Positions 911 through 52,458 of a DNA stretch of 52,458 bases are shown here, one piece after another. How positions within the stretch are numbered: position 1 is the stretch's first letter; each line of letters begins with the position of its first letter. The position numbers and the translations under genes were made by a program. The notes under the pieces were generated by a model. The model was not told the origin of the DNA, ran no database searches, and saw only the letters and a list, made by a program, of their open reading frames with translations. The stretch spans positions 1 through 52,458 of the IMG/VR virus record IMGVR_UViG_3300027754_000128, one strand, 5' to 3'. The stretch is from a virus. Taxonomy: Duplodnaviria; Caudoviricetes.

Positions 911-1176
911 GTGCTCTCCTCCGCCTTATGAACCAAGAGCGTGCAGCGCCGGGGCGTGAACACTTCGCCATCCTTGTGGGTGATGAAGTCGATTATCTCT
1001 TGGCAGCCGCGCTCATCGACGTGCAGCGTGCCGACATCGGGCACGTTCAGAGCGTTGACGCCAATCCACAGTGTTGTGTCGATGTCGGCGGCGTCCACCA
1101 TCGACACAACGTCCGCCTCTTGGTGGCAGGGGGGGCAATATCCCACACGCCCATGTGGACACGCTTCATCGCTCAT
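907..1176 (-). CDS. Hypothetical cassette protein with N-terminal Cys/His motif (CPHGxxGYCPPC)
   Basis: MSDEACPH...AEEST; ATGA coupling at both ends. Confidence 0.7.
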   Translation of the reverse strand: MSDEACPHGRVGYCPPCHQEADVVSMVDAADIDTTLWIGVNALNVPDVGTLHVDERGCQEIIDFITHKDGEVFTPRRCTLLVHKAEEST

Positions 1177-3608: not shown

Positions 3609-4348
3609 GCTGCCACCGCGCCTGTGCGATCCATCGCGGCATCGTAGGCTTCGAGCAGACGTTCGTAGTCGGCCGGCAGTTCGGTCTCGATCACGCCAAG
3701 GCGGGCCTTCTCGGTCTTCCACCAGGCTTTGAGTTCGTCGGACGTGTTCATGCCCTTGAACATTTCGACCGCAGCGGCGCACCACTGCTGCTTCTTTGTC
3801 GGCGGCGCGACAATCTTGGGAGCGGGGGCCTTGGATTCGGAGATCAACCCGTCGCGAGAGGCCTCGTCCTTTGCCGCCTGCGTTCCGACCGGGCCGACAA
3901 AGCGACGTGGCCCGGCTGGCCGGAAGTCGCCGCCGCCGTTCGCCATACCCCTGGTGCCTGTGTGTTCGTCATTTCCGTCGAGGTCGACGGGCGCTACGCC
4001 ACACATTGACGACAGCGCGAACCTGCGGGCGTAGGTGATGCTTGAGCCGTGGCCGTGCTGGTCGGCCTTGGTGACGGGCATACCCAGCACTTCACTCATC
4101 CACTGACCGGACGAGTGCATCATCATTGTCTCGACCTCGATGCCGCCGCCTTCGCGGATGCGGGGGAACTGCACCACCGCGATGTTGTTGGCGGAAAGCG
4201 GCGCGCGGATCGCGTCCCAGACCGCACCGAGGTCAGCGTACTTGGAGCGGAACGCGGGATTTTCCCGATCCTTGGTCGCCCCTTCGATCGCAGCCTGCGC
4301 CTTCGCCATAGCGGCGGCGATCTCGTTGATCTGTTCACTTCGTTGCAT
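3605..4348 (-). CDS. erf: ERF-family single-strand annealing protein
   Basis: EIAAAMAKAQ...NPAFRSKYADL...HSSGQW...GSSITYARRFAL. Confidence 0.92.
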   Translation of the reverse strand: MQRSEQINEIAAAMAKAQAAIEGATKDRENPAFRSKYADLGAVWDAIRAPLSANNIAVVQFPRIREGGGIEVETMMMHSSGQWMSEVLGMPVTKADQHGHGSSITYARRFALSSMCGVAPVDLDGNDEHTGTRGMANGGGDFRPAGPRRFVGPVGTQAAKDEASRDGLISESKAPAPKIVAPPTKKQQWCAAAVEMFKGMNTSDELKAWWKTEKARLGVIETELPADYERLLEAYDAAMDRTGAVAA

Positions 4349-4559
4349 GACTTGCTCCATTGATTTTGAGGCAGGAAACCCGTGTGCCGCTCGGCACGAC
4401 GTTCGCGAGGCTGACGAGGTCGAGCGCGCAGGCGGTGGGTGACGACAGTGCCTTGCCGCGTGGGCGGCAGTCGGGGTCGCACTGCATGAGTTGCCAGCGC
4501 GGCGTGTCGGCCTGGGCCGGCAGCGCGATCAGGCAGAGCGCGAGCGCGAGGGGCTTCAT
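4335..4559 (-). CDS. Small secreted Cys-containing protein
   Basis: Signal peptide MKPLALALCLIALPAQA; four Cys in the mature part. Confidence 0.6.
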   Translation of the reverse strand: MKPLALALCLIALPAQADTPRWQLMQCDPDCRPRGKALSSPTACALDLVSLANVVPSGTRVSCLKINGASHATK

Positions 4560-34900: not shown

Positions 34901-37900
34901 TCGACAAAAAGGGCAAGCCTGAGTTCATGTACAAGTTGGTTCCCTATAGCTTCATCAGGGACAACGACGGCAAAGAGATTCAGCCATCGGAGAAGAAATA
35001 CGCGGGCAGGGTCAAGGCGCTCGGCGACGCTATTGCGGAAGAGGTTCGTGGCATCTATCGCCGCGCCGCTGCTGGCGACAAGAACGCCCAGAACATCCTG
35101 GCCCAAGCCGGCTGGTACAAGGCAATGCGTGCCAGGCTGCGCCAAGAGTTCGGTGGCCTGGGTGACCTGTTTGCCGACGCTCTCGGAGCCACGTCGCCCA
35201 ATACGCCCGTGCGCGGGAACTGGGAGAATGCGGTCGACAGCTTGCGCCGCGCGAGCCGTGGTGACTTTGATGCACTGATGCCGCAGTGGGTAGCCTGGTC
35301 TGAGAATATCGACCGGCTCGAGACCGACCTCCGCGCGTTCGTAAACGAGCAGCGCGCCAAGAAGCAGGCCTCGAAGAGCGAGCCCTGGATGGACAGCGAT
35401 AAGCCGCAGACCTTGAAGTCCATCAAGGAGATGCAGGAATACATCGATAAGAGGAAGGCTCTGTCTGAGGCGCGTGAACTGCCGCCCGACCTCATGCCGA
35501 CCAAGGAGAGTGGCGCACAGTACGGGTTCAACGGTCGCAACGTGGTGCGCGCCATGCTCGACCTGTGGCGCACAATCAAGGACGCTGATCCCGATATCGG
35601 ACGTAGCGGCACTGCGCCCAAGGCGCTCAATTTCTCTGGCAACCTCATTGGGTTCCGGGGCAAGGCGACGATCGATGTCTGGGCCGCGCGCCTGCTGCAG
35701 CGTCTGGCCGGCAAGCGCCGCATACCCAGCATGGCAGAGATAGCCGTCTCCGGTGAGATGCTTGCTGATGCTTCGACAACGGGCCAGTTCGGCTTCGGGC
35801 AGGACACTTTCGCGCATGCCGTTGCCGTCATCAGATCCGACAGCGAGATGAGCCAGGACTCTGCTCTCGCAAAAATCAATGACGACGACCTACAGGCTGT
35901 TGTCTGGTTCATCGAGAAAGAGGTCTGGACGGTCAACAACTGGACAAGCGTCTCAGGGGAGGGAGGCTCGTTCGAGTTGGAAGCCAACCTCACCGGCACG
36001 GCCAAGCAGGCCCGTGTTCGCGAGCTGCGTAAGATCATCGACAGCTCCCCGTCCGCGGCCGATGTGAAGGCGGTGGCCGGCGCCGACGCAGTCTCGGCAA
36101 AGGTCGAGGCGTGGGATGCTGAACACAAAGCGGAACTCGATGAACTGGGAGAGATCAACCAGCGCCTCGCGTCGGATACCCTGTCGAAGAAGGAAGCATC
36201 CGGTCTAAAGAAGCGCGCGGCAGAACTGCAGAAGGCCACTAAGCTGCCGAAAGAAATCGCGCAGGAGATGCGCGACGTTGCCAACGGCCAGCGACGGATT
36301 GACGAGCGCGCTGCCCAGAAGGTGTTGGCGCGGGCGGAACTGGCAACCCTTGAGCGTCCCGTCGATCGCTACGTCGGCGGTCTGTCCACGCAGATGTCGA
36401 TCGACAACCAGGGGGTGGACTACGTCCCGACCGACGCCGACATGGCCCGCTTGGGTGATGCCATCCGGCTGGCGATCTACGAGAACGATGCCACTGCAAA
36501 CGTGCTGGCCTCCAAGGCCCTGCCGACCGAGGGCCGCTACGGCAGCGTGGAGCGTTCGCTCGACCTCGAGATTGTGGCTCGCGAGGGCTACGATCCCAGC
36601 ACGGTCTGGGCCGAGATGCTGCGCCAGGCGCAGGAAGCGCGGCAGGACTCGACCTTCCTCTCCCGCGTTCTGCGGGATGGCGAGGAGATCGATTACACCA
36701 AGCACCGGCCCGGCATTGAAATATACTTCCGCGATGCCGCCGCCGCCCAGCAGCTTGAGAAGATGTTGGCCGACCTGGCGAAGGAGGGGGTGTCCTTCCT
36801 GACGGTCTCTGTCGACGGGCGCCGGATGCCCGGTTATGTGGCCGGTGCCATGCCGGCAGCGGTCGGCGTGCGCCTGCAGTACGTCCCAGAGTTCGAGCAA
36901 AGGTACGGAATAGACGACCTTTCGGGCTTGGATGACGCGGCCATTGCGGATAAGATGAAGGCCAAAGGCGACGAACTGGACGACGTTGCGATGCGCGTCG
37001 CCACCAATGTTTCAGGCGTCTCGTTTGCTGGCGTTTTCTGGCATGAGACACAGGTGGCATTCAGCCATCAGTATCAGGAGAAGATCGATGGTCTCGCAAC
37101 TGGAAGAACTGAAGCGGAAGCTGGCGCGACTGGACCCGGAGGGTGGGTCGGACAATCCGTTCGTGCAGGGCTTGCGGATGCAGATCGCCAGTCGCGAGAA
37201 GCCGCGAGCGGAGAACCCGGTGGGCAACGAGAGCCGGTGGTCGGCGGGGATGAGGGCAGCACCGGACGCGCCGGAAAAGGCGTAACTCTCAACCAGTCCG
37301 TCTACCACGGCGGCCCGCGCATCTTCGACCGCTTCAGCCTCGACTATATTGGAACGGGAGAGGGCGCGCAGGCTTTCGGTTGGGGATTATACTTCGCGTC
37401 GAAGAAGGCTCTCGCGGCGCACTATCGCGACAAGCTATCTCCCGCTGGCCCCGGTGCCGTCGAGTATCAGGGCAAGATGGTCCTCACCTCGGACGGCAAG
37501 CCTCTTCGCGCGCGGCCCGAGTGGCTGAAGGATTGGGGCAACGATCTGCAGGCGCTGATCGAGGTTGCAGTCGACGGCAACATGACATTGCCGGAGGCCA
37601 TTGCCGAGGTCCGCGCCGCCGCTAAGCAGGTCGGGTTTATCCGTCGCTTTCTGGGCTACGGCTTTAACGAGCGGTTCCTGCAGGCGATCCTCGACAAGGG
37701 CTACACCATTGGCGACTCGCAGAAGGGCCGCCTCTACACCGTCGAGATCCCCGACGATGGCGCGTACCTGCTGTGGGACAAGCCGCTCAGTGAGCAGAGC
37801 AAGGTTCTTCGCGACGCACTGCCCGCACTGATCCAGAAATACGGCGGTGACCTCTCCAAGATCATTGGCGCCAACGGCCAACTGCGCGACAGCGTGACGG

Positions 37901-40900
37901 GCGAGTCCGTCTACCGCGCACTGTCGGCGGCTATGGCGAACAAGCCAATCGATGAAAGCGGCATGGCGGGCTGGACGCGGGTCCAGAATACCGTCAACGA
38001 CCGAATGGCGAACGACAAAGCCGCCTCCCTCGCCCTGCTTGCCGCAGGCATCCCCGGCATCAAGTACCTCGACGGCTCGTCGCGGCGGAAGGGCGATGGC
38101 GATCACAACTATGTGCTGTTCGATGACAGCCTCGCCAAGATCACGCAGTACGAGCAAGACAAACGCGGCTCGATCACGTTCGGCGATACGTCCGCCACGG
38201 TCGACCTCTACCAGGCCCGCAACCCGTCCACGCTGCTGCATGAGATGTGGCACAAGTGGTTCGGCGAGTTCGAGTTCGATGTCGCCCACCTCGGCGCCAG
38301 CGAGCAGATGCGGGCGGACTTCAAGGTGCTGCTCGACTTCGTCGGCTCGACGGACGGTCGCATTGGACTGAGCGCCTACGAGGGCGGGCGGGTGAATACA
38401 CTGCGCGCCAAGATCGACGCCACGGGCGAGAAGAGCCTCGACGGCGCGGAAGCCGAGGAGTGGGCCGCGCTGAAGGTCCGCATCGAGCAGAACGAGAAGC
38501 TGGCCCGTGCCGGCGAGGTCTACCTCATGGAGGGCAAGGCCCCGTCCGACGCCCTCCGCAAGGTGTTCCGCGCCTTCAAGTCGTGGCTGCTGGGCGTCTA
38601 CCGCAATATGCGGAATCTGCAGGCGCCGATCTCTCCCGAGGTCCGCGCGGTGTTGGACCGCATGCTGGCGACCGACGAGGAGATAGCCTCGCTGAACGAT
38701 CGGCAGGGGCTGAACCCCGTGCTGGAGTACGCCAAGGAACTGATGAGCAAAACTGAGTTCGCCGCCTACACGAAGAAGACCGCGGACGTACTCGAGGACC
38801 AGCAGGACGCACTGTTCGCCAAGGTATCGGGCGACCTCCGCAAGCAGGCCAAGGGCGAATACGTCAAGGAACGCGCCAAGATCCGGGGCGAGGTCACCGA
38901 CGAGATGATGGCGGAACCCGGCCAGCAGGCGCTGCACTTCCTAAAGAAGGGCGTCATGTCTGCCGGCGAGACGCCTGAGATACTGAAGGGCCGCAAGTTG
39001 TCCCGCGCCGGCCTGATAGAACTGATCGGGCAGGAGGGGCTGAACACGCTCCCGGCGGGCATCTATGCGGAAGAGGGGCTTTCCCCCGACGAGATGGCGC
39101 CGCTGTTCGGGCTGGGCAACGGCATGGAGTTGGCCGAGCGCCTGATGCAGATCGCCGCCGAGGACAAGGCGTGGAAGGACAAGGGCGGGCGCGGCACCGC
39201 CGTCCAGTCGCGGATCGCAGAGGAGACCCAGAGGCGGCTCACAGAGGCCCTGGGAGACCCGCTGAACGACGGCAGCATCGAAGCCGAGGCTTGGGCCATC
39301 GTCCACTCGGACAAGCGCCTGGACCTCATGGCAGTCGATCTGCGGATGCTTGCGCGCAAGGCCGGGCAGACCGGCGCGGTGAGCATCGTGGACATCCAGA
39401 ACTGGGCGGCCGAGCAGATCGGCGGCATGTCGTCGTATCAGGCGACACAGGTCGCGCGCTACCAGCGCGCCGAGCGGATGGCGGGCCAGCAGGTCCAGAA
39501 GGCCCTCGTGAAGGGCGACTGGGTGGCTGCGTTCAAGGCCAAGCAGGACCAGGTCTACAACTTCGCGCTCTACAAGGAGGCGATGAAGGCGTCCGACGAT
39601 GCTGGCAAGATCACGGCCTACCTCGACAAGCTGGCCGGCGCCCGCAACATCAAGGCCCTCGACCAGAACTATCTCGACTCCATCCACGGTCTCCTCGAGG
39701 AGTACGACTTCAAGAAGCGCAGCGGCACTCTGCTGACCGATCGCACCCGCTTCAACGCCTTGGTCGCGGAGCAGGCGTTGATGGGCGTCGAGGTGCAAGA
39801 GCCGCCTTACCTGAAGGGGGCCGAGCGCAAGCACTTCTCGCAGATGACGATGGATGAATTGCGCGCCGTCTACGAGGCAATCAAGCAGCTCGATCGCCTT
39901 GGCCGAGACATCAAGAAGGTGATGCTCGACGGCAAGAAGGTCGCGCGCGATGCTGTGCTGACCGAGATGGAGGCGACTGCTGCTGCCGGCGTGCAGCGCG
40001 GCTCCAGTCTCAGCAATCTCGGCAAGACCGAGATCCAGAAGAGCGTCGGCAAGGCCAAGCATATCTTGCGTCTGGGCAACGCCAGCCTGCTCAAGATCGA
40101 GCGGCTGCTGGAGTTCGCGGACGGCGATGTGACCGGCAACGGTATCTTTTCGCGCGCGATCTACCGGCCCATCGCCAACGCTGCCCACGCCACCAACGAT
40201 GAGCGCGTCGATAACAGCAAGCAGTACAAGGTGATCTACGAGAAGGTGCCGCTCGAGCAGCGCAATGCCTGGTCGACAATCCACACGCTTCCCGAGCTTG
40301 GCGGCAGGAAGCTCTCAAAAGAGAACATCATCTCGATAGCTCTCAACATGGGCAACGAATCGAACCTCGAGAAGCTGATCAAGGGCTATGGCTGGAGCTA
40401 CGAGGGTGTTCGCGCGGTCGTGAACAAGTACCTCACGAAGGAAGAGTGGAGGTTCGTTCAGGACAAGTGGGACTTGATGCAGTCTCGCTGGCCTGCCTAC
40501 GCCGCGATGATCCGCGACATCGAGGGCGTCGAACCTCCCAAGATCGAGGCCGTCCCTCTCGAGACACCGTTCGGAACGCTGCCCGGCGGCTACATGCCGG
40601 TCCAGTATGACCGCAACGAGAGCCTGGAAGCACAAAAGATCGGCGAGGCGCAGGACAGTGCGTTGCTGCAGGGCATGGCAATATCGCCCCGCGCCAATGT
40701 ACCGTCCACGAAATCTGGATCGTCCATCGAGCGCACCGGCTTCACTGGTCCCATCCTGCTGGAACTGAGTGTCATCGGTAAGCATCTGGACGAGGTCGCC
40801 CACGACACCCACCACCGTCGTGCCGTGGCGGACGTTTTCAAGATCATCTCAAACGACCGCTTCCGCAAGGCCATCCAGTCGCGGCTCGGCGTCGAGTACG

Positions 40901-42045
40901 AGGCAACCTTCATGCCGTGGTTGATCCGCGTGGCTAACGAGGCGCGCGTAGCCAACGTCGAGCTGGCCGGGCCTGACTACATGATGCGGGCGCTGCGGGT
41001 GAACGTGACGCAGATGGCGATGGGCCTGCGCGTCTCGACCATGGTGCAGCAGGTCGCGGGCTTTGCCGCATCGGCTGCGAATCTGGGCGCCAAGGATCTG
41101 GGCTCCGGCTTCTGGGAATACATCCAGAACCCCAAGGCCGCCGCTCGCGAGGTCTACGCGAAGTCGGGCGAGATGCGCCACCGCGCCAACAACCTCGAGC
41201 GCGACATCAAGGCCAACCTCGACAAGTTCCGCGGGAGTACCAAGAGGATCTCCCGCGCGCGGGACGACATCGGACGGTTTGCCTTCCGCGGCATCGCGCT
41301 GATGGACCTCGCGGTGTCGATCCCGACGTGGCTGGGCGCCTACAAGCAGGGCCTGACCAAGGGCATGCTCGAGGCTGATGCCATTGCCTACGCCGACAAG
41401 ATGGTGCGCGACACGCAGGGTGCCGGCGGCGTCAAGGATCTGTCGGCCTTCCAGGGTGGCGGCGGCGAGGGCTGGAAGCTCCTCGGCATGTTCTATTCGT
41501 TCCTCAACGTCTACTACAACGCGCAGGCCCGCATGCTCGAGGCCGCGCGCAAGCCCGGCAAGACCTTCTCCGAGCATGTCGACCTCTGGTGGATGGCGAC
41601 CATGTGGATGGCCGTGTCGCCGCTGTTGGCCGCCGCCGTGTCGGGGCAGGGACCGGACGACGACGAAGACCCGCTCTACTGGGCCATGCGGACGGTGGGC
41701 TTCGGCGCCTTTGCCGGCATCCCGGTCGTGCGCGATGCAATGAGTACGATGTCCCGCGAGATGGGCGGCAAGCCAACGGCCGGCTTCCAGATGTCTCCCG
41801 TGACCGGGCCGATCTCCGGGTCCACGCGCCTGGTGAAGGATTTGATCAACCTCGCGAGCGGCGAGGATGTCAGCAAGAACTTCACCAAGAACACCTTCAA
41901 CGTGATTGGCGGCTTCACCGGCCTGCCAACAGGGCAGATCGGCGTGACCTCGCAGTTCCTGTGGGACACGCTCTACTCCGGGGCAGAAAACCCCGAGAAC
42001 ATTCTGGAATGGCTCCGCGGCCTCACGTTCGGGCCCAAGAAGTAG
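31975..42045 (+). CDS. Giant polyvalent ejection protein (3356 aa; gp16/DarB-like position)
   Basis: Glycosylase-like (WY, ATSP, TIDVW, LQAVVW), SAM-lyase-like (GRY..VERS, QDS), ART (YHG, GTGEG.QAFGWGLYF, NYVLFD) and HEMWH peptidase motifs. Confidence 0.88.
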   Translation: MSGPDELQPAAPVDDGLAQLTADRNAADVPPPPTPPASAPGPAVTNEYDALLAEAPAKPVNEYDAVVEDLSRERKQTVRGNLIGAQATTPEAAAKSLDLSRKTGLPADMVERNLPKVEADHRLNEYDAILNASPKTQTWIAGDPTNAKVAGDEVKRLAEIEAILKPRNMYDRNRPSKASRSIDSESADWEATAFGRAGGIVYDNKAPAAAPLYQSQWMSGVENMAQGFNKMSNLNIARDIRTFDAIDQGKPVNTADDPYGYKDMSSDQRAQTRTLAEVQIVKNVAALKRSTAFVADLPRNQNVQPFFDALDDVQAKDMLSVLTDALGKMSAGMNGAPQAGTAGPSPLAAAGKIFASDSLGIMQQLAVETTPNMLPIIAGSIVGGPVGTFLASQAVDFPSRTDDWIKQELAKENKTGVEFINVNDPEAVQAYLRANPAFAEKAQRMGYAGSFGPSAVDAVSFGATRPFKRGAGFAANTGRVAGNIAMDTGLEMVGEAAGQIISGQDEIKLSEIVAEGLGAFPHGASNTVVATAREASRASTEAKTEAAVKEIKATITAANEFLTDLRTHVAETETLTLDDLVDKVQGSTLHKLSPEKMKDFLESLSPDEQKADVFISSDAVSTLFQDMSVLERDTLAENLGITEQLNSLGLNANTDIVIPLPVYLTAIGDAHKAWRDDVRMDFMGFSNREAIAEGKAKAEETAAAVARFEEQVAAGVQDSPQEIVYQQVLGMLKANGFTNEQASQQAAYAASRYHARAVRSPQMFTDALDAFTQYPFTIRSHLGDGIRVIGPDQLDIMLDSIRSGKDPVITPAFAHIEARKAAAEAELSTVLGEAPVVKTPKQIADERKAAALGVFQARRQELADWLESRGLDLKTATNAQIRAEIEKVQKGTSYNQDDVLVVKQPLSDSLIMVAQRGDRATGNRLLLSTEEKAAIAASVGPSGLSVAEITATVRKHKLAHPPAQNWEPLVFIKARLDKKGKPEFMYKLVPYSFIRDNDGKEIQPSEKKYAGRVKALGDAIAEEVRGIYRRAAAGDKNAQNILAQAGWYKAMRARLRQEFGGLGDLFADALGATSPNTPVRGNWENAVDSLRRASRGDFDALMPQWVAWSENIDRLETDLRAFVNEQRAKKQASKSEPWMDSDKPQTLKSIKEMQEYIDKRKALSEARELPPDLMPTKESGAQYGFNGRNVVRAMLDLWRTIKDADPDIGRSGTAPKALNFSGNLIGFRGKATIDVWAARLLQRLAGKRRIPSMAEIAVSGEMLADASTTGQFGFGQDTFAHAVAVIRSDSEMSQDSALAKINDDDLQAVVWFIEKEVWTVNNWTSVSGEGGSFELEANLTGTAKQARVRELRKIIDSSPSAADVKAVAGADAVSAKVEAWDAEHKAELDELGEINQRLASDTLSKKEASGLKKRAAELQKATKLPKEIAQEMRDVANGQRRIDERAAQKVLARAELATLERPVDRYVGGLSTQMSIDNQGVDYVPTDADMARLGDAIRLAIYENDATANVLASKALPTEGRYGSVERSLDLEIVAREGYDPSTVWAEMLRQAQEARQDSTFLSRVLRDGEEIDYTKHRPGIEIYFRDAAAAQQLEKMLADLAKEGVSFLTVSVDGRRMPGYVAGAMPAAVGVRLQYVPEFEQRYGIDDLSGLDDAAIADKMKAKGDELDDVAMRVATNVSGVSFAGVFWHETQVAFSHQYQEKIDGLATGRTEAEAGATGPGGWVGQSVRAGLADADRQSREAASGEPGGQREPVVGGDEGSTGRAGKGVTLNQSVYHGGPRIFDRFSLDYIGTGEGAQAFGWGLYFASKKALAAHYRDKLSPAGPGAVEYQGKMVLTSDGKPLRARPEWLKDWGNDLQALIEVAVDGNMTLPEAIAEVRAAAKQVGFIRRFLGYGFNERFLQAILDKGYTIGDSQKGRLYTVEIPDDGAYLLWDKPLSEQSKVLRDALPALIQKYGGDLSKIIGANGQLRDSVTGESVYRALSAAMANKPIDESGMAGWTRVQNTVNDRMANDKAASLALLAAGIPGIKYLDGSSRRKGDGDHNYVLFDDSLAKITQYEQDKRGSITFGDTSATVDLYQARNPSTLLHEMWHKWFGEFEFDVAHLGASEQMRADFKVLLDFVGSTDGRIGLSAYEGGRVNTLRAKIDATGEKSLDGAEAEEWAALKVRIEQNEKLARAGEVYLMEGKAPSDALRKVFRAFKSWLLGVYRNMRNLQAPISPEVRAVLDRMLATDEEIASLNDRQGLNPVLEYAKELMSKTEFAAYTKKTADVLEDQQDALFAKVSGDLRKQAKGEYVKERAKIRGEVTDEMMAEPGQQALHFLKKGVMSAGETPEILKGRKLSRAGLIELIGQEGLNTLPAGIYAEEGLSPDEMAPLFGLGNGMELAERLMQIAAEDKAWKDKGGRGTAVQSRIAEETQRRLTEALGDPLNDGSIEAEAWAIVHSDKRLDLMAVDLRMLARKAGQTGAVSIVDIQNWAAEQIGGMSSYQATQVARYQRAERMAGQQVQKALVKGDWVAAFKAKQDQVYNFALYKEAMKASDDAGKITAYLDKLAGARNIKALDQNYLDSIHGLLEEYDFKKRSGTLLTDRTRFNALVAEQALMGVEVQEPPYLKGAERKHFSQMTMDELRAVYEAIKQLDRLGRDIKKVMLDGKKVARDAVLTEMEATAAAGVQRGSSLSNLGKTEIQKSVGKAKHILRLGNASLLKIERLLEFADGDVTGNGIFSRAIYRPIANAAHATNDERVDNSKQYKVIYEKVPLEQRNAWSTIHTLPELGGRKLSKENIISIALNMGNESNLEKLIKGYGWSYEGVRAVVNKYLTKEEWRFVQDKWDLMQSRWPAYAAMIRDIEGVEPPKIEAVPLETPFGTLPGGYMPVQYDRNESLEAQKIGEAQDSALLQGMAISPRANVPSTKSGSSIERTGFTGPILLELSVIGKHLDEVAHDTHHRRAVADVFKIISNDRFRKAIQSRLGVEYEATFMPWLIRVANEARVANVELAGPDYMMRALRVNVTQMAMGLRVSTMVQQVAGFAASAANLGAKDLGSGFWEYIQNPKAAAREVYAKSGEMRHRANNLERDIKANLDKFRGSTKRISRARDDIGRFAFRGIALMDLAVSIPTWLGAYKQGLTKGMLEADAIAYADKMVRDTQGAGGVKDLSAFQGGGGEGWKLLGMFYSFLNVYYNAQARMLEAARKPGKTFSEHVDLWWMATMWMAVSPLLAAAVSGQGPDDDEDPLYWAMRTVGFGAFAGIPVVRDAMSTMSREMGGKPTAGFQMSPVTGPISGSTRLVKDLINLASGEDVSKNFTKNTFNVIGGFTGLPTGQIGVTSQFLWDTLYSGAENPENILEWLRGLTFGPKK
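37088..37285 (+). CDS. Nested +1-frame ORF (65 aa) inside the giant gene
   Basis: AGGAG at 37076-37080, 7 nt before ATG; helical MVSQLEELKRKLARLDPEGGSDNPFVQGLRMQIA; the host frame is a low-complexity linker here. Confidence 0.55.
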   Translation: MVSQLEELKRKLARLDPEGGSDNPFVQGLRMQIASREKPRAENPVGNESRWSAGMRAAPDAPEKA

Positions 42046-42105: not shown

Positions 42106-43344
42106 ATGACATTAGACCGGCGCCTGGGCGTCTCTGGCGGCACCGCCTTGAAGGCACCGTGCCTAGTGGCGACGACGGCCAACATCACGCTGTCCGGTCT
42201 GCAGACGATCGACGGCGTGACCGTCGTTGCCGATGATCGTGTGCTGGTGAAGAACCAGACGACCGGCAGCGAGAACGGCATTTATCTGGCGAACACCTCG
42301 ACGTGGACGCGGGCGGTCGACTTCAACGGCACGCGCGACGCGGTACAAGGAACGCTGGTCCTGGTGATCTCAGGAACAGTCGGCGGAAATGCCCTGTTCC
42401 AACTGACGACGGCGACGCCGGTCATCGGCACCTCTAGCCTAACCTTCACGCCGTCGAGCGCGGGCGCGCTGTCGCTCGCTTCGACCTTCATGCTGACGGT
42501 GCTGGATGACACTACGGCGGCAGCGGCGCGGACCACGCTCGATGTGCCGAGCAATGCCGAGGCCATTCTGGATACAATCGTTGATGCCGCGGGCGATCTG
42601 ATCGTCGGCACGGCGGCCGATACTGTAGCCCGCCTTGCCAAGGGGACTGCCCTGCAGGTCTTGCGCGTCAATTCCGGCGCAACCGCGCTCGAATGGGCGG
42701 CGGCGCCGAACGCCACCGCGCCAACCTATCAGGTTCTCACCAGCGGGACGGCGGCTACATACACAACGCCAGCCGGCGTTCGCTATATCAGGGTCGTGTT
42801 CGTAGGCGGCGGCGGCGGTGGTGGCGGCGCTGGCGGCTCTACCGCACCGACTGGCGCAACGGGCGGCACGACATCGTTCAACTCGATCACGGCCATCGGC
42901 GGCTCTGGCGGTGTCGGATCAATCGGGACTACGGGTGCTGGTGGCATCGGCGGCACGGGTGGCGCTGGAACGGCTACTTGGCGCCTGCCGGGCGGCCCCG
43001 GCTCAACTGGTTCGGGAACGTTCGGCTACGTTCAGGGTGGCAATGGCGGCGTAGGCCCGTTTGGTGGGGCGTCTGGCACGGGCGTCAACGGGGGCGTCGG
43101 CGTTGCTGGACAGGCGAACACGGGAGCCGGTGGCTCGGGCACCGGCACCGCAGCCGCGACCAATGCTTCCGGTGGCGGCGGCGCTGGCGAGTACGTTGAA
43201 TTGATCATCGGCAGTCCTGCGGCGACCTACACCTACACGGTGGGGGCTGGTGGCGCGGGCGGCATTGGGACAGGGGCGTCGCCGCTGACCGGAGGCGCGG
43301 GTGGCAGCGGCATCATCGTTGTCGAAGAACACTACAACTTCTAG
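42106..43344 (+). CDS. Tail fibre-like protein with C-terminal glycine-rich domain
   Basis: ATTANITLSGLQTIDGV...RVLVKNQT...NGIY N-domain; GGGGGGG.../GGAGGSGIIVVEE domain. Confidence 0.8.
   Translation: MTLDRRLGVSGGTALKAPCLVATTANITLSGLQTIDGVTVVADDRVLVKNQTTGSENGIYLANTSTWTRAVDFNGTRDAVQGTLVLVISGTVGGNALFQLTTATPVIGTSSLTFTPSSAGALSLASTFMLTVLDDTTAAAARTTLDVPSNAEAILDTIVDAAGDLIVGTAADTVARLAKGTALQVLRVNSGATALEWAAAPNATAPTYQVLTSGTAATYTTPAGVRYIRVVFVGGGGGGGGAGGSTAPTGATGGTTSFNSITAIGGSGGVGSIGTTGAGGIGGTGGAGTATWRLPGGPGSTGSGTFGYVQGGNGGVGPFGGASGTGVNGGVGVAGQANTGAGGSGTGTAAATNASGGGGAGEYVELIIGSPAATYTYTVGAGGAGGIGTGASPLTGGAGGSGIIVVEEHYNF
42739..43329 (+). repeat. Gly-rich domain repeat, copy 1 (copy 2 at 44389-44979)
   Basis: Colinear at offset 1650, mostly synonymous differences. 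Confidence 0.92.
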
Positions 43345-44296: not shown

Positions 44297-44985
44297 TGGC
44301 ACGCTTTCTCGGCGTCACCTCGGGCAGTATCGCGCGCGCTCTGGGCTTCACGCCCGCTTCGTCCAGGGTGCCTACCTCGCAAACCTTCACTAGTGGCACG
44401 GCGGCGACCTATACAACCCCGGCCGGCGTAAGTTATCTCAAGGTTCGCTTTGTCGGCGGTGGTGGTGGCGCTGGCGGCGCTGGCGGCTCTACCGCACCGA
44501 CTGGCGCAACGGGCAGCACGACATCGTTCAATTCCATCACGGCCATCGGCGGTTCCGGTGGCGTGGGTTCAGTGGGGGCGACTGGCGCGGGCGGCATCGG
44601 CGGCACGGGCGGCGCAGGCACGGCTACTTGGCGCCTGCCGGGCGGCCCCGGCTCAACTGGTTCGGGAACGGTCAGCTACGTTCAGGGCGGCAACGGCGGC
44701 GTTGGCCCATTTGGTGGGGCGTCGGGAACCGGCATCAACGGGGGCGTGGGCGTCGCTGGACAGGCGAACACTGGCGCGGGTGGTTCGGGAACCGGCACAG
44801 CAGCCGCGACCAACGCTTCCGGTGGCGGTGGTGCGGGAGAGTATGTCGAATTGATTATCGGCAGTCCTGCGGCGACCTACACCTACACGGTGGGGGCTGG
44901 TGGCGCGGGCGGCATCGGTACTGGCGCAGGCGCGCTTACGGGCGGCGCGGGCGGCAGCGGCTTCATCATCGTTGAAGAGTTTTAG
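44296..44985 (+). CDS. Stand-alone glycine-rich fibre-domain protein
   Basis: Near-identical to the C-terminal domain of 42106-43344. Confidence 0.8.
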   Translation: MARFLGVTSGSIARALGFTPASSRVPTSQTFTSGTAATYTTPAGVSYLKVRFVGGGGGAGGAGGSTAPTGATGSTTSFNSITAIGGSGGVGSVGATGAGGIGGTGGAGTATWRLPGGPGSTGSGTVSYVQGGNGGVGPFGGASGTGINGGVGVAGQANTGAGGSGTGTAAATNASGGGGAGEYVELIIGSPAATYTYTVGAGGAGGIGTGAGALTGGAGGSGFIIVEEF

Positions 44986-47056: not shown

Positions 47057-48306
47057 TGGCGCAGGCCCCGCTATCCGACGAGAAGTGCCAGGAGGCGGTT
47101 GACGCCATCGTGACCCATGGCAGCGTGGCGGCTGCGGCCCGCGCGTTGAACGTCAATCGATCAACATTCGAGGCCCGCGCAATCGAGGCAAAAAGGCGAG
47201 GCTTCAACTCGACACTGCCGCCGCGCCTGATGATGAAGGGGCAGTCCATCCTCCGCAACATGGCGGGGGAGGAGGTCGGGAGGTGGGACAAGACCAAGCT
47301 CGCCGGCCGCGACGCCGCCGATACATTTCAATTGCCCGATCCAAAAAAGGTCACGAAGGTTTCGACCTTCCTCGACCAACAAGGAAACGTCGCCGCTCAG
47401 TGGATCTCGGAAAAACCGGACGACGCCGAACGCGAACGTCTCTGGCAGCTCTACGCAGAGAAGATCGCGGGCGATGTGAAGCGCGCCGCGCCGGTCAAGG
47501 CGCCCAAGGGCAAGTCCCATTCCGACCTTCTGGCGGTGTATCCGGTAGGCGACCATCATACCGGCATGATGGCATGGCCCGATGAAACGGGCGACGCGGC
47601 CTACGATTTGAAGATTGCCGAACAGGTGATGCGTGATGCGTCCGTCCGCCTGATCGACACATGCCCGCCGTGCGACCAGGCGCTGATCCCGTTCCTCGGG
47701 GATTTTCTTCATTACGATTCCTACGCCGCGGTCACGCCGGCTCACCGGAACCTGCTCGACGCTGATGGCCGGTTTCCAAAGATGGTCGAGACCGGCGTGC
47801 GGATCGTGCGGCATGTCATCGCCGCTGCGCTCGAGCGGCATGGGCGCGTCAACGTGATCTTCGAGGGCGGCAACCACGACCCCGCCACGGCGGCCTTCAT
47901 GCGTATCCTGCTGTCATGCCTGTACGAGAACGAGCCGCGCGTCACCGTCGATAAAACGCCCACGGGTGTCCACTATTTCGAGTGGAACCGCGTGCTGATC
48001 GGCACCCACCACGGCGACAAGATCAAGGGCGAGAAGCTGCCCAGCATCATGGCGCACGACCGGCCGGAAGCGTGGGGCCGCACGGCGCACAGGGTTTGGT
48101 TTACCGGCCACGTTCACCACGAAAGCCTCAAATCGTTTCCCGGCTGCAAGGTCGAGACGATGGAAGTGCTGGCGCCGCTGGACGCCTATGCGGCGGGCGC
48201 CGGCTATCGCGGCCATCGATCGATGAAGGCCATCGTCTACCACTGCGAATACGGCGAGGTAGAGCGGCACACTGTGCAGCCGAGCATGTTTGAGAGGGCC
48301 GCGTGA
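47056..48306 (+). CDS. HTH + calcineurin-like metallophosphoesterase
   Basis: GDHH, GDFLH, GNHD, HHGD, GHVH motifs; N-terminal GSVAAAARALNVNRST. Confidence 0.88.
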   Translation: MAQAPLSDEKCQEAVDAIVTHGSVAAAARALNVNRSTFEARAIEAKRRGFNSTLPPRLMMKGQSILRNMAGEEVGRWDKTKLAGRDAADTFQLPDPKKVTKVSTFLDQQGNVAAQWISEKPDDAERERLWQLYAEKIAGDVKRAAPVKAPKGKSHSDLLAVYPVGDHHTGMMAWPDETGDAAYDLKIAEQVMRDASVRLIDTCPPCDQALIPFLGDFLHYDSYAAVTPAHRNLLDADGRFPKMVETGVRIVRHVIAAALERHGRVNVIFEGGNHDPATAAFMRILLSCLYENEPRVTVDKTPTGVHYFEWNRVLIGTHHGDKIKGEKLPSIMAHDRPEAWGRTAHRVWFTGHVHHESLKSFPGCKVETMEVLAPLDAYAAGAGYRGHRSMKAIVYHCEYGEVERHTVQPSMFERAA

Positions 48307-48572
48307 TGGCGAAGAAGTTCGCCATGCCGACGCGGATGGTGATGGTCGAGTGGCTCGACGCCATGAGCGACGACGCCGGCTGGAAGAGCTGGAAGAAGGT
48401 TCACAAGCAGGAACCGCTGATCGTGCATTCGCTGGGCTATGTCGTGCGCGACGAGCCGGGCTTCCTGACGATTGTCGGGTCTGTTGTCGTATTCGACGGC
48501 ACTCTTGATGGCGACGTGACCATACCACGCGCGATGATCCAGAAGATCCATGACTTGAAGGTCGAGCCGTGA
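48306..48572 (+). CDS. Small beta-barrel-like protein (VEWxDA type)
   Basis: VMVEWLDA...GW...SLGYV...IPRAMI. Confidence 0.7.
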   Translation: MAKKFAMPTRMVMVEWLDAMSDDAGWKSWKKVHKQEPLIVHSLGYVVRDEPGFLTIVGSVVVFDGTLDGDVTIPRAMIQKIHDLKVEP

Positions 48573-49003
48573 CCGTGTTCCGCCCCGTGTCCACCCGCGA
48601 GGATGAACGCTGGCTGCGCTGGCTCGACGCCGAGTGCTTCCCCGACGACCGGCCGCTGGTCCTAAGCGACGCCTTCTGGGCGTTGGCATGGGAGGGCGAC
48701 GAGCCTGTGGCCTTCTGCGGCTGGTGCGCGCGGGGCGACTGGGGCTTCCACTATCGCGCAGGCGCCCATCCTGTGGCTCGTGGGAGAGGGTTACAGGCTT
48801 TGATGATCCGCTACCGCGAGGGCGAGATGGTGCGCCGGGCGGGGCTTAAAACCGCCGTGACCTACACTGAAGCCTACAGCGCCGCGTCGATGCGGTCGCT
48901 CATTGCCTGCGGATACCGGCCCTTCGAGGCTGATGAGAACACGGGTCTCGTTCTCAACCCGGCCTATTGGCGCACGATGGTCTACTGGCGGCGGCAGCTA
49001 TGA
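48569..49003 (+). CDS. GNAT acetyltransferase
   Basis: RAGAHPVARGRGLQ...S.RSLIACGY. Confidence 0.8.
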   Translation: MTVFRPVSTREDERWLRWLDAECFPDDRPLVLSDAFWALAWEGDEPVAFCGWCARGDWGFHYRAGAHPVARGRGLQALMIRYREGEMVRRAGLKTAVTYTEAYSAASMRSLIACGYRPFEADENTGLVLNPAYWRTMVYWRRQL

Positions 49004-49212
49004 GCGAAGTGGTCGTGTTTCCCGGCGAAACGACCCTGCCGCTGCCGGCCGAGCGCGTCCTCAACGGCGCCATCGAGGCGGGGCTGGGGATGGCCTTGGT
49101 GCTGGGCCGATACCCGGACGGTCAAATCTATCTGGCGACGACGCACGGCGACCTCGGCGATCTGCTGTTGTTGCTCGAGCGTGCCAAGGCTGCCTTCCTG
49201 GAGGACTGCTGA
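49000..49212 (+). CDS. Hypothetical protein
   Basis: ATGA-coupled. Confidence 0.65.
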   Translation: MSEVVVFPGETTLPLPAERVLNGAIEAGLGMALVLGRYPDGQIYLATTHGDLGDLLLLLERAKAAFLEDC

Positions 49213-49415
49213 TGGTCGCTCTTTACCCGCGCTTCGTGGTCGAGGACGGCCGCATCCTTTGCAAGGTCAACGTCGAGGGGGTGGAGCGTGCCTGCCCCGT
49301 GTCGGAGGGTCTTGCTCTATCCCTGATCGCGGATCTGGCGAAGGCCATCCAGTGGGCCGATTGCAGCGCGCCGCACCCGTCCGACAGCGACCAGCCAAAG
49401 GCACCCGCCCGATGA
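49212..49415 (+). CDS. Hypothetical protein
   Basis: GGAGG RBS; TGATG-coupled. Confidence 0.55.
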   Translation: MVALYPRFVVEDGRILCKVNVEGVERACPVSEGLALSLIADLAKAIQWADCSAPHPSDSDQPKAPAR

Positions 49416-49801
49416 TCCGGGTTGTCGCCTCTTACCTGGCGGCGGCTCTGGCTTTTGTGGCTGTCGTGACCGTGTTCATGCCGCTGAAGGCGAGGGCGCA
49501 GGATCACAGCCCGCACCACAAGGACTTCTACCGGCTATGGCTACAACCCGGCACGTCTGTCAGTTGCTGCAACGCCCGCGTCGAGCTGAACGGCGTCGAG
49601 ACCGGAGACTGCGAGCCTGTCAAGGCCGAGGTCCGGGGTGGGAACTGGTGGGCGTGGCTGCGGCAGGAGAGCCGGTGGATCGAGATAGACGACAGCCGCA
49701 TCCTGCGTGAGCGGAACCCGACGCAGGGCGGGGTGGATGCTCACCTGTGTTACAGCTACGGACGCGTGCTGTGTTTTGTCCCGCCATTTGGCGGTGGCTA
49801 G
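49412..49801 (+). CDS. Secreted Cys-rich protein
   Basis: Signal peptide ending ARA; SCC...DC...HLC...LCFVP. Confidence 0.7.
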   Translation: MIRVVASYLAAALAFVAVVTVFMPLKARAQDHSPHHKDFYRLWLQPGTSVSCCNARVELNGVETGDCEPVKAEVRGGNWWAWLRQESRWIEIDDSRILRERNPTQGGVDAHLCYSYGRVLCFVPPFGGG

Positions 49802-49815
49802 AACATACCTGGAAC

Positions 49816-50035
49816 TTTCTCCCCCATTCCTCCCCTAGTGTTTTGGTCTTGTTCTGTCCCGGCGGGGCAGTTCCCCACAGGGAGCCGGAATCTACGAAGG
49901 ACCGAAAACCCAATGTTTATTGGGAAAAAATGGTGGGCGCTGTAGGGATTGAACCTACGACCCCACCCGTGTGAACGGCGTTCTGCCCGCTGATTTCATT
50001 AGACAATTCGCTTTCTCCCCCGTTTCTCCCCCATT
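49816..50035. repeat. Candidate integrase arm-type sites flanking attP
   Basis: TTTCTCCCCC at 49816, 50012, 50023 and TTCCTCCCCT at 49827; tandem pairs with an 11-bp period. Confidence 0.6.
49931..49975 (-). other. attP core: 3' half of tRNA-Val(CAC)
   Basis: Minus strand TTCACAC-GGGTG-GGGTC-GTAGG-TTCAATC-CCTAC-AGCGCCC-ACCA; 5' half absent; adjacent to the integrase stop. Confidence 0.88.
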
Positions 50036-50985
50036 AGAATCACGACCCCACGGTCAGGCGTTACCGGCGATCGGTGGTGAACGTAGCGGCCGGCAGATCG
50101 TTCGTCGCGCCACAGTCCGCGCTCGGCGATGGCGCGCATATCGTATCCCAGCGCCCGCAGATCGGTCGCCATTGCGTGCCTCGACTGGTGTGGCGTGTAG
50201 GTGACCTTCAGGCGGGCGCACAGGGGCTTCAGCCACCTGTAGACGTTGTGCCGGTCACCCCAGGGGAAAACGCGCCCAGAGGGCAAATGCGGGGCGCTGG
50301 CGAGCATTGCTACCAGTTCGGGCGACAGACCTATCTCACCGATGTCATCCGTCTTGGTGGAGCCGACGCGGGCAGTGGCGGCCGGAAGGTCGAAGTCCTC
50401 GCGGCGCAGGCGCAGGCTGTCGGTGATCCGCTGGCCTGTCTCATACAGCCAGACGAGGAACAGGTGCTTGTGTCCGGTCGTGTTCGCCAACAACAGCCGC
50501 ATCGTGTCAGCGGCGACAGGCCGGCGGGGCGAGCGGCGGGATACCTTCAGCCGGCGGTGGCGGCGGTCGGCGCACCATCCTTGCTCGGCGGCGAAGTGCA
50601 GGATCGAGGAGGCGGGGCCAATCACAGCGCGGTTCTTGTTGCTGTCGCTTGTGCGGGGGCAGAGCGCGTGCGCTGCAGTCGTGAGGTCGGAGCCGATCAT
50701 ATCGCCCACAAGCTTGTCGCCAAAGAACCGCACCAGCCGGTCGATATAGGCGAGGTCTTGCTTGCCTAGCCGCTTGCCCTGAAGGAAGGCGTGGGCGGCC
50801 TCGCGGAACGAGACTACCGCGCCAGGCTCACGACCTTTGATAGCGGCGAAGAACTGTTCGGCTTCTTTCTTTGCATCTGCGAGTTTCGTCGCTGCCAGTA
50901 CTTTCTCAACTTGTCGTCCGTTACTTGGCCCGCGAACAACGAAGGTCCGGTTGCCTTTGCGGGAACCGGGCGCGTAGAACTGCAT
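49999..50985 (-). CDS. int: Tyrosine integrase
   Basis: TGQRITD (R), TKT (K), HQSRH, GLW, RYVH (Y). Confidence 0.93.
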   Translation of the reverse strand: MQFYAPGSRKGNRTFVVRGPSNGRQVEKVLAATKLADAKKEAEQFFAAIKGREPGAVVSFREAAHAFLQGKRLGKQDLAYIDRLVRFFGDKLVGDMIGSDLTTAAHALCPRTSDSNKNRAVIGPASSILHFAAEQGWCADRRHRRLKVSRRSPRRPVAADTMRLLLANTTGHKHLFLVWLYETGQRITDSLRLRREDFDLPAATARVGSTKTDDIGEIGLSPELVAMLASAPHLPSGRVFPWGDRHNVYRWLKPLCARLKVTYTPHQSRHAMATDLRALGYDMRAIAERGLWRDERSAGRYVHHRSPVTPDRGVVILMGEKRGRKRIV

Positions 50986-51152
50986 GCGGCGCGCTCCTTG
51001 GCTTTGAGTGTTTCGATGTCCGCGTCCTCGAGCCTGGCGCGGCGGCCGGTGCCGATCGTGGCGATACCGTGCCGGGCCAGCGCCCGCGTCAATGTACGAC
51101 GGGACCATCCCATGTGAACAGCGGCGGCGGTCAGGGTGATCGGCTCACTCAT
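50814..51152 (-). CDS. xis: Excisionase-like HTH protein overlapping the int 5' end
   Basis: ITLTAAAVHMGWSRRTL...GRRARLEDADI. Confidence 0.75.
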   Translation of the reverse strand: MSEPITLTAAAVHMGWSRRTLTRALARHGIATIGTGRRARLEDADIETLKAKERAACSSTRPVPAKATGPSLFAGQVTDDKLRKYWQRRNSQMQRKKPNSSSPLSKVVSLAR

Positions 51153-51213
51153 GGGCTTCCCGCCCAGGCCAGGAACTCGACGTACCGGATCACCAGCCAG
51201 ATCGCGCCGGGGA
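51108..51213. repeat. 106-bp exact direct repeat, copy 2
   Basis: Identical to 1-106. Confidence 0.97.
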
Positions 51214-51283
51214 TCACCACAAAGAGGACTAGGGCGACAAGGCCGACCTTGGTGACGACGGCTAGAGCGTCTTCGCTAATCAT
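51149..51283 (-). CDS. Small membrane protein, allele B
   Basis: MISEDALAVVTKVGLVALVLFVVIPGAIWLV... Confidence 0.75.
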   Translation of the reverse strand: MISEDALAVVTKVGLVALVLFVVIPGAIWLVIRYVEFLAWAGSP

Positions 51284-51483
51284 GTGTTCTCCAGTGCTGC
51301 GCGGGCGGCTTTTTGAACCGCAAACAAAACGTCAGCGTCGATGATGCCGTCCACGCCAACCAATTCTGCGGTGGCCGCAACTCTCAGCGCAGCCCGCAGC
51401 CGCTCTATCTCGTCGGCGGCTTCATACATCGTAGCCAGCGTGCCGGCCTCGCGGCGCAGCCTCTCTACTAGGTCATCGGTCAT
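51280..51483 (-). CDS. EAADEIERLR-type cassette protein, allele B
   Basis: Same N-terminus and ALENT end as 173-439, different middle. Confidence 0.8.
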   Translation of the reverse strand: MTDDLVERLRREAGTLATMYEAADEIERLRAALRVAATAELVGVDGIIDADVLFAVQKAARAALENT

Positions 51484-51797
51484 GTGTTCTCCCTCGCTTT
51501 GGCGATGGCGGCGCGGGCGACGTAGTAGCCGAGTGGCGTTTCATCAAGGTCTAGGCAGTCGATGCTTTCGAGGATGCCTTCCAGCGCAGCCCGGAGCCGC
51601 TCGATCTCTGCATCGGATGCGCGGCGGTTCCATGCGGCGATGGCTTGGGTTTCGGTCGAGTAACGAGAGTCGCCGTCGCCCGCGCAACCTACCTCACCAT
51701 CGCAATAAATTTCCCACCCGTCGATGCGATTCTCGTCACGAAAGGTAGCAACGCGAGCGCCGCAAAACGGACACGGATTCAGTGCTTCATCGCTCAT
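51480..51797 (-). CDS. Lar-family restriction alleviation-like protein with C-terminal extension
   Basis: LNPCPFCG...IYC....C...QAIAAWNRRA. Confidence 0.8.
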   Translation of the reverse strand: MSDEALNPCPFCGARVATFRDENRIDGWEIYCDGEVGCAGDGDSRYSTETQAIAAWNRRASDAEIERLRAALEGILESIDCLDLDETPLGYYVARAAIAKARENT

Positions 51798-52153
51798 GCT
51801 GGCACCTCTTGCTGGTGTGGGCCGGTGACGCGGATGCAAGCCGTGTCGTCCCATTTAGACAAGACCTTGGCGTAGTCCTGTGCTTCAGCTTCCACATGGA
51901 AGGACGCGGAAAATGGATAAAAGGCGGGTCCGTTGATTTTCGTTTGCGCGTATTCAACCCTCCACACCTCGACCATCTTGGTCTTGGGTAGGGTGGACTC
52001 GGCGGCGTCTGCGAGGGCCTTCGCCAAATCCTCGCGGATGTTCAGAAAGACGCCCGATCCAGACGGCTTGCCAAACGGACCGCTTGGGCCAAACAGCATT
52101 GGTGTCTGGCGTGCTGCGCGGATTGCCTCGCGCAGTTTGTCTGCATCGCTCAT
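51794..52153 (-). CDS. Hypothetical cassette protein
   Basis: Starts at a GGAGAACACATGA junction. Confidence 0.7.
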   Translation of the reverse strand: MSDADKLREAIRAARQTPMLFGPSGPFGKPSGSGVFLNIREDLAKALADAAESTLPKTKMVEVWRVEYAQTKINGPAFYPFSASFHVEAEAQDYAKVLSKWDDTACIRVTGPHQQEVPA

Positions 52154-52401
52154 GTGTTCTCCTTCCGGGCGCGGATGGCGGCGGCGGCTTCGTCAAGTTC
52201 AGCGCCGACAGCCCAGCCGATTCGGCCTCCATTCAGGCGCTCGCAGACCTTCGCCGCTTCCTCCAGCACCGCATCCCGTTCCGGTTGGGGCCGGCGGGAG
52301 AGTAGGGCGCGGGCGACGATAAGGGCGTCAAGTGCACGCGGAAGCTTGGTATCGAAATCAGTCACAATCCGCTTCGCTGCTTCCAGTTCGTCTAGGGTCA
52401 T
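52150..52401 (-). CDS. Hypothetical cassette protein (RDAVLEEAAKVCE motif)
   Basis: Ends KENT at the junction; ATGA-coupled. Confidence 0.7.
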   Translation of the reverse strand: MTLDELEAAKRIVTDFDTKLPRALDALIVARALLSRRPQPERDAVLEEAAKVCERLNGGRIGWAVGAELDEAAAAIRARKENT

Positions 52402-52458
52402 GTCCCGCGCTCCACTTCGACAGCAGCCTTGCCTTCCGGGCTAAACGCGGAAATCCAC
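52398..52458 (-). CDS. 3' end of a second allele of the DUF968-like gene (truncated by window edge)
   Basis: 55/61 identical to 1173-1233; all differences synonymous. Confidence 0.8.
   Translation of the reverse strand, partial: WISAFSPEGKAAVEVERGT

Follow-up and report, generated by a model that had tools for sequence, protein, structure and literature searches.

Two versions of a variable small-gene locus at the ends of a freshwater phage contig

Introduction

In this work we have analysed a locus of small genes which is present in two different versions, here called A and B, in a single virus contig of 52,458 nucleotides (nt) from a freshwater metagenome (IMG/VR record IMGVR_UViG_3300027754_000128; Caudoviricetes). 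The whole contig is referred to below as the window. Version A lies at its beginning and version B at its end, and in the phage genome the locus forms a translationally coupled array of small genes in the early-left operon, between the gene of a DUF968/Ref-like nuclease and the xis and int genes. The original prediction, made from the sequence, had proposed two origins for this doubling, either two related prophages in tandem or an assembly path through a bubble of co-existing phage variants, and had stated that alternative states of a hypervariable locus are captured in both cases. The latter statement is borne out by A, B and a third arrangement described below. As to the origin, we consider it likely that the contig is an assembly path through a population bubble of a circular phage genome; the evidence comes from a fork at position 51213, from the presence of both branches in the sequencing runs X1 and X4, from a third form in X4 and from look-ups of exact proteins on a contig of 59,570 nt.

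Gene content of the two versions

Every gene of the locus is read from the minus strand. The order in version A is the nuclease gene, a gene for an 89-amino-acid (aa) Cys/His protein, an 8-codon minigene, a Mom-like gene, genes for an 88-aa protein and a 44-aa membrane protein, and xis, which is cut by the start of the contig. In version B the 3' end of the nuclease gene, cut by the end of the contig, is followed by genes for proteins of 83 aa and 119 aa, a Lar-like gene, genes for a 67-aa protein and the 44-aa membrane protein, xis, int and an attP-like tRNA fragment. On the xis side, positions 1-106 are identical to 51108-51213 (106/106) and the identity ends at 107/51214. On the nuclease side, 1173-1233 match 52398-52458 at 55 of 61 positions; both copies translate as WISAFSPEGKAAVEVERGT*, and the six changes are all synonymous, including a TCG to AGC serine switch. 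Version A spans 1233 nt and version B 1351 nt, so that B is longer by 118 nt. These comparisons reproduce what had been noted from the sequence. Between the two anchors, A 107-156 matches B 51214-51263 at 34 of 50 positions and A 157-193 matches B 51264-51300 at 36 of 37; an unlike stretch follows, A 351-448 and B 51395-51492 agree again at 89 of 98 positions, and the remainder, 449-1172 in A (724 nt) and 51493-52397 in B (905 nt), is unrelated.

Two of the genes are present in both versions as diverged alleles, which goes beyond the earlier description. The 44-aa membrane protein is encoded at 42-176 in A (allele TM44-A) and at 51149-51283 in B; the alleles are identical at 38 of 44 residues and have relatives in loci L004/L007, L008 and L009 of other contigs. 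The second pair consists of the 88-aa protein of A (173-439), which belongs to a 'DLV..LR ... AADEIERLR' family, and the 67-aa protein of B (51280-51483) with the same AADEIERLR stretch. These two proteins are members of a widespread, unannotated family of small phage proteins, which begin M[TS]D(I/L)VxRLR ... EAADEIERLRA and continue with unrelated tails (loci L010-L112). The truncated 5' end of xis at 1-45, with an open reading frame (ORF) beginning MSEPITLTAAAVHMG, is identical to 51108-51152, and the complete gene, for a protein with a weak HTH_8 match below the cut-off, is found at 50980-51152 and is conserved in L001 and L003. Its frame stays open to 50814, about 170 nt into the integrase gene, and it is equally open, with similar residues, in L001; this could be an arrangement of overlapping genes or a by-product of the conservation of the integrase N-terminus.

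The cargo that differs between the versions was assigned correctly from the sequence, as profile matches and ORFs confirm. Specific to A are the Mom-like gene of the XF1762 family (429-887; phrog_1384, E 1.5e-33; NF045478, 174.3 bits with a cut-off of 50), the minigene MSDERVPR* (884-910) and the gene of the 89-aa Cys/His protein (907-1176). The minigene opens with the junction motif described below and closes in the ATGA start of the Mom-like gene, and we read these 27 nt as a junction scar. Specific to B are the Lar-like restriction-alleviation gene with an EIERLR C-terminal extension (51480-51797), the 119-aa gene (51794-52153) and the 83-aa gene (52150-52401). The Lar-like protein matches PF14354 with 40.2 bits (cut-off 28.6) over positions 2-58 of the 58 in the profile, and stays below the cut-off of the narrower family TIGR03655 (37.5 bits against 39.6). 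The EIERLR stretch is also the C-terminal extension of the Lar-like gene in L008. For the 88-aa, 89-aa, 67-aa, 119-aa and 83-aa proteins and the other small genes of the locus no family match was found in Pfam, PHROGs or NCBIfam; for the 119-aa and 67-aa proteins the Atlas gives unnamed viral clusters only. The right-hand anchor is the DUF968/Ref-like HNH nuclease gene at 1173-1619 (PF06147, 31.6 bits with a cut-off of 27.8; phrog_1588, E 6e-16), whose product also reaches 26.7 bits against PF16786, just under the cut-off of 26.9; the truncated 3' end of its allele B occupies 52398-52458. Judging by the family names of the Mom-like and Lar-like genes, the two cargoes may be alternative anti-restriction loads, that is, different answers to restriction by the host.

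The Mom-like gene contains a homopolymer. A run of ten C on the plus strand at 517-526, ten G on the coding strand, lies within it, and the protein of the window (152 aa, found on six contigs) leaves the NF045478 profile after this run, matching positions 2-133 of 143. A variant of 150 aa (P0009, on one contig of another assembly) continues in the other frame after the run, scores 193.1 bits over positions 2-143 and has the canonical ...ENT* junction at its end; counted in codons, it would need 11 G. The gene in the window is thus frame-shifted at the G10 run and has no full-length reading frame of the family. Either the run serves phase-variable expression of a DNA-modification gene, or it is a homopolymer error of the assembly.

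Origin of the two versions in one contig

The window comprises a single complete genome of a temperate phage, about 51.1 kb long, and an overrun of 1.35 kb. Terminase, portal-like, tail, Erf, NinB and int genes are each annotated in one set, and there is no host DNA in the 52,458-nt record. The first and last bases of the contig differ, and a test for identical ends would miss its circularity. Only one other direct repeat of at least 30 nt with high similarity was found, a 300-nt pair with 82% identity (42713-43012 and 44363-44662), so the overlap of the ends is not part of a general repetitiveness. This pair sits in the tail-fibre region.

Contigs from four public freshwater runs (X1, X4, X5 and X6; Logan) were aligned on 47500-52458; the depth of a Logan contig is a rough measure and not a copy number. 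In both X1, flagged as a possible source of the window, and X4 a contig of 6,328 nt covers 47500-51213 without a difference, spans the attP-like site, int and xis unbroken and ends exactly at 51213, the last base common to A and B. Two contigs of 110 nt then cover 51184-51293, one with no difference and one with 16. Version B is continued by contigs of 172 nt and 1,080 nt. A further contig of 899 nt has 6 differences on 51412-51492, followed by 724 other letters and then by 52398-52458. Exactly the values 16, 6 and 724 are obtained when A is compared with B at those places in the window, which identifies the contig with 16 differences and the 899-nt contig as haplotype A. Beyond 52458 the long branch contigs of A and B both have 33 nt more and then end, which is what a merge node would give. 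The 6,328-nt contig begins about 2.6 kb to the left of 47500 (near 44886) in both runs, and a second branch point may lie there. The original prediction had held that misassembly would be indicated if no reads linked int-xis to version B; B does follow xis, by 30-nt overlaps in two runs, and this answer is given at the level of the graph only.

The depths of the long branches roughly sum to that of the core genome, as had been expected for a population bubble. In X1, A (8.24) and B (5.3) together give 13.5 against a core of 12.0, and in X4, A (10), B (5.8) and a third form (5.04) give 20.8 against 18.9. This agreement does not extend to the first small bubble, where the sums are well above the core (8.1 + 10.6 = 18.7 against 12 in X1; 7.4 + 19.9 = 27.3 against 18.9 in X4).

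The third form was found in X4, on a contig with a diverged allele of the Lar-like gene (11 differences and a 6-nt gap). Here 51787 is joined to 52144, which brings the start of the Lar-like gene directly to the end of the 83-aa gene; the 11 letters at the joint can be assigned to either side and read ATGAGCGATGA, the start of five cassettes. A second joint in X4 connects 51311 to 51577. The third arrangement probably consists of the 83-aa gene, a short Lar-like gene and the membrane-protein gene, without the 119-aa and 67-aa genes. A 323-nt contig over the 83-aa gene in X4 has a depth of 10.7, close to the depths of B and the third form taken together. X5 yielded an A-type contig (16 differences) and no cover of 51484-52147, which is uninformative at a core depth of about 5. 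In X6 a more distant relative is present, with 15-45 differences per contig and other joints, among them one from 51307 to 51577; these joints hint that further arrangements exist.

Exact look-ups of proteins also bear on the backbone that carries version B. For the integrase, the terminase, the portal-like protein, an 896-aa tail protein, a 416-aa exonuclease and a 327-aa protein, the longest contig listed has 59,570 nt, and the same length is given for all five exact B-specific proteins. By comparison, three of the four exact A proteins (TM44-A and those of 88 aa and 89 aa) list only the window itself. B seems therefore to occur with the same backbone and without the exact A proteins.

We propose that the assembler went once round the circle of the attP form and then 1.35 kb into the other branch of the bubble; the graph is that of a circle with a bubble, and the contig would consist of the circle and a second pass into the other branch. 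It would thus open with haplotype A and close with haplotype B of the same locus. The two haplotypes, and probably at least one more, co-exist in the sampled population, in this reading on an otherwise identical backbone. Several points weigh against this explanation. The linkage in the Logan contigs reaches as far as 31-mers, and the copy ratios are approximate. The contig starts 106 nt before the fork and ends 3 nt before the apparent merge, and its overlap is unlike the usual k-mer size of assemblers, a behaviour of the assembler for which the explanation does not account. The excess depth of the first small bubble belongs here too. The look-ups are taken to point to a single 59,570-nt contig because they give equal figures for the longest contig; this contig exceeds the length of one genome by 8.4 kb and could represent a prophage together with flanking host DNA, or else an overrun longer than the present one. 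We also tried to deduce the k-mer of the assembler from the 106-nt overlap, which fits none of the usual values.

Could version B instead come from a different, related phage which shares only the int-xis block, the end of the contig being a misjoin between two genomes? Even the genes that A and B have in common at the locus diverge by about 9-10%, parts of the cassettes are found in viral contigs that are unrelated (L004 to L006), and other phages may contribute k-mers to the first bubble, whose depths lie above the core. Against such a chimera, the B branch follows the 6,328-nt contig, which does not differ between the two runs and is entered by no side branch, and rejoins the path of A 33 nt past the end of the window. 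In addition, the longest contig listed for the five B proteins has the same length, 59,570 nt, as that for the exact terminase, portal-like, tail, exonuclease and integrase proteins. We consider a chimeric join unlikely.

A tandem dilysogen or a mixed concatemer, in which an A-phage and a B-phage are linked head to tail at attP, with the contig running over the joint, is in our view quite unlikely. The order of the contig, from A through the late genes, the attP-like site, int and xis to B, is what a tandem junction would give; an assembler would collapse two identical tandem cores into the same graph as a population bubble, and the 59,570-nt contig demonstrates that stretches longer than one genome do get assembled. 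However, the record is without host DNA, and attL and attR would each stand at half the depth of the core, as deep as the branches of A and B which were kept, and would break the contig, whereas in X1 and in X4 a single contig, as deep as the core, runs through 49931-49975. The contigs that touch this tRNA-like stretch, aligning with 3-4 differences and unlike flanks on both sides, represent tRNA genes of other organisms and not att junctions, and among the pieces listed there was no contig alike on one side only, the sign of attL or attR that the original prediction had asked to look for. The depths of A and B are also unequal in both runs, by this rough measure; X4 holds a third arrangement, and look-ups of the exact A proteins did not report the 59,570-nt contig given for B. 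It is very unlikely that the contig represents a terminal-redundancy heterozygote, headful-packaged virion DNA of a mixed infection with A at one end and B at the other: the overlap of 1.2-1.35 kb, about 2.5% of the genome, lies within the size range of headful terminal redundancy, but a contig assembled from many reads is not the image of any single molecule, and both the fork and the merge fall on branch points of the graph.

If, as we think, the doubling arose from a population bubble, the record overstates the genome by 1,351 nt, with two small genes and parts of two others duplicated, and the correct single unit has 51,107 nt with version A or 51,225 nt with version B. It is common in viral metagenomics that circular templates yield terminal overlaps, as described for CheckV (PMC8116208). 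The direct terminal repeats described there are usually exact and of k-mer size (55, 77 or 99 bp), in contrast to the overlap of 1.2-1.35 kb found here, whose two copies are different haplotypes. A terminal overlap made of two haplotypes is thus an unusual but explicable case.

Junctions between the cassettes

Each of the 12 gene starts from the nuclease gene to xis (six in A and six in B) overlaps the preceding stop in an ATGA. A 13-mer, GGAGAACACATGA, comprises a ribosome-binding site, a spacer and this ATGA, and lies on the minus strand at 173-185, 436-448, 907-919 (with one mismatch), 51280-51292, 51480-51492 and 52150-52162. With up to one mismatch these six occurrences are all that the window contains; every one is at a junction of the locus, 0.03 would be expected, and none of 100 shuffles reached six. 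A 19-mer form of the junction occurs four times with up to three mismatches. As a consequence of the shared motif, E-N/S-T is the C-terminus of otherwise unrelated proteins of the locus. The stretch replaced between A and B has the motif as one border (448/51492), and its other border is the ATGA junction that closes the nuclease gene (1173/52398). There were no promoter-like sites in 1-2700 and two in 49700-52458, both outside the junctions; terminator-like sites were counted at the level of the shuffles, with none at the junctions. The only integrase is the phage-type enzyme beside the attP-like tRNA fragment.

We infer recombination at the junctions from three observations, namely the co-existing arrangements, the position of their borders at junctions and the nearby Erf and NinB genes. 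Cassettes may be gained, lost and swapped by recombination at short conserved junctions, at GGAGAACACATGAGCGATGA between genes and at the EIERLRAAL-coding stretch within genes. The exchange would be a homology-driven recombination which tolerates short or diverged homology, and the Erf and NinB/Orf proteins of the phage itself probably drive it. Two points count against such a role for the motif: it rests on one precise deletion and on shared motifs, and selection for translational coupling and intact genes could by itself keep the motif and place the borders at junctions.

A second repeated sequence, the DEIERLR-coding 21-mer, was considered as a DNA recombination signal and demoted, as the conserved peptide and GC-rich codon use explain its DNA identity. 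It occurs four times in the window, in the locus only (266-286, 350-370, 51394-51414 and 51591-51611), and exactly in 105 viral contigs, some of them of low GC; conservation around it drops to about 0 bits beyond -9 and +27. Two joints and one border of similarity fall at this 21-mer.

Might the 20-mer GGAGAACACATGAGCGATGA have a function beyond ribosome binding? With stop codons and start codons in two frames each, it can terminate whichever cassette lies upstream and start the one that follows. It is conceivable, though we put it forward only tentatively, that it provides the homology for swaps of anti-restriction cassettes by Erf, NinB and perhaps the DUF968 nuclease, and that the cassettes form an integrase-free, integron-like pool of anti-defence genes which moves between phages of different hosts. 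The suggestion of transfer between hosts comes from GGAGAACACATGAGCGATGA itself and from a Lar-like gene with 83% nt identity over 230 nt to that of the window, located in an island of 52-60% GC in L005/L006.

Relatives of the locus and neighbouring genes

Relatives of the integrase, 63-64% identical, belong to one phage represented by L001/L002 and to another represented by L003; these share only int, xis and the nuclease gene with the window and carry other genes in the interval. Two loci found through the 44-aa protein, L008 and L009, keep the order of HNH nuclease, 83-aa-like gene, cargo, 67/88-like gene, membrane-protein gene and xis. The cargo is a Lar fusion in one of them and a 300-aa ORF without a significant family match in the other, with a methyltransferase-like ORF upstream of the 300-aa ORF; the homologue of the 83-aa protein in L009 is similar at its N-terminus. 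The exact 13-mer GGAGAACACATGA is absent from L001, L008 and L009 at up to two mismatches and is accordingly not universal in the phage family.

The exact 20-mer GGAGAACACATGAGCGATGA was found in three other viral contigs, at cassette borders. L004 holds Erf-like, NinB-like and HNH genes, two cassettes, a membrane-protein gene 86% identical in DNA to allele A and a 35-nt match of 97% to the 83-aa gene. In L005/L006, flanks of about 37-45% GC surround the GC-rich island, which holds a domain like that of the 67-aa and 88-aa proteins, two junction motifs and the Lar-like gene. The similarity to the window begins at a junction and ends at 51576, adjoining the joint of X4 and X6. At about 6000-10600 of L006 (and also in L005), hexapeptide-repeat ORFs are fused in frame to the 67/88-like domain through a junction longer by 1 nt (...KENTMSDDLV...), and in the island of L006 a 64-aa gene and the Lar-like gene follow the fused domain. 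Among phage records there were only matches of 66-71% to the Mom-like gene for 1-3000, and none for 49500-52458. The exact 35-nt left anchor had no match in viral and metagenome contigs; near-identical records possibly lie outside this search, and the negative carries little weight.

The 3' part of a tRNA at 49931-49975 (minus strand), read by eye as Val(CAC), is the attP-like site. ARAGORN called no tRNA there, and Rfam gave only two sub-threshold chance matches at 49800-50100. It adjoins the tyrosine integrase gene at 49999-50985 (minus strand; PF00589, 49.8 bits). Neither the integrase alone nor a two-sequence alignment found prophage relatives in bacterial genomes, and no host or attB was found. 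Upstream of the locus, in the same operon and on the same strand, are the genes of a NinB/Orf-like recombination mediator (2572-3114; phrog_72, E 2.6e-19) and of an Erf-like single-strand annealing protein (3605-4360; phrog_2324, E 2e-32). The remaining genes of the contig encode a methyltransferase, the terminase, a portal-like 'head-tail adaptor' protein, tail proteins and a product of 3,356 aa, followed by the attP-like site and int; the 3,356-aa protein is encoded by a single ORF at 31975-42045, among the virion genes. The structural genes resemble podovirus-like PHROGs.

Comparison with known systems

Lambdoid phages are well known to carry variable accessory genes in the interval from the recombination genes to xis-int, for example the ea genes of lambda, and lar adjoins recT in the Rac prophage. 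The locus described here resembles this early-left region in its place in the operon, in the presence of Erf and NinB, a nuclease, small accessory genes, xis and int, in having a Lar-family gene among its cargo, and in a gene content that varies between relatives. It differs from it in the type of phage, which is podovirus-like by its PHROGs, in the remaining cargo, and in that the variation is seen inside one natural population.

A second parallel, in the outcome of the exchange, is offered by the hyperplastic regions of T4-type phages, where promoter plus terminator stem-loops (PeSLs) mediate modular shuffling, as described by Arbiol et al. (2010, PMC2839356). In what is described there, small non-essential genes are split by a repeated short sequence, and insertions, deletions and replacements end at it; here, too, a repeated motif stands at the cassette borders, with all six of its copies at junctions of the locus. 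The linkers are different, however, since the one found here is a ribosome-binding site with an ATGA overlap inside one operon, without a promoter-like or terminator-like site. As to the mechanism, De Paepe et al. (2014, PMC3945230) describe relaxed homologous recombination by Rad52-like recombinases of phages, with Orf as a helper. The account they give is matched here by the Erf-like and NinB/Orf-like proteins encoded 1-3 kb upstream of the locus and by mosaic borders at short shared sequences; the difference is that the shared stretches are short (11-37 nt) and that recombination in our case is a proposal.

Set beside these systems, the locus is a real but known kind of phage mosaicism. What the window adds is a look at the standing variation within one natural phage population, with at least three arrangements on an otherwise identical backbone. 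The two main forms load DNA modification or Lar-type alleviation, as selection by hosts with different restriction systems would produce, and with borders that lie precisely at short shared junctions the mechanism of recombination can be tested.

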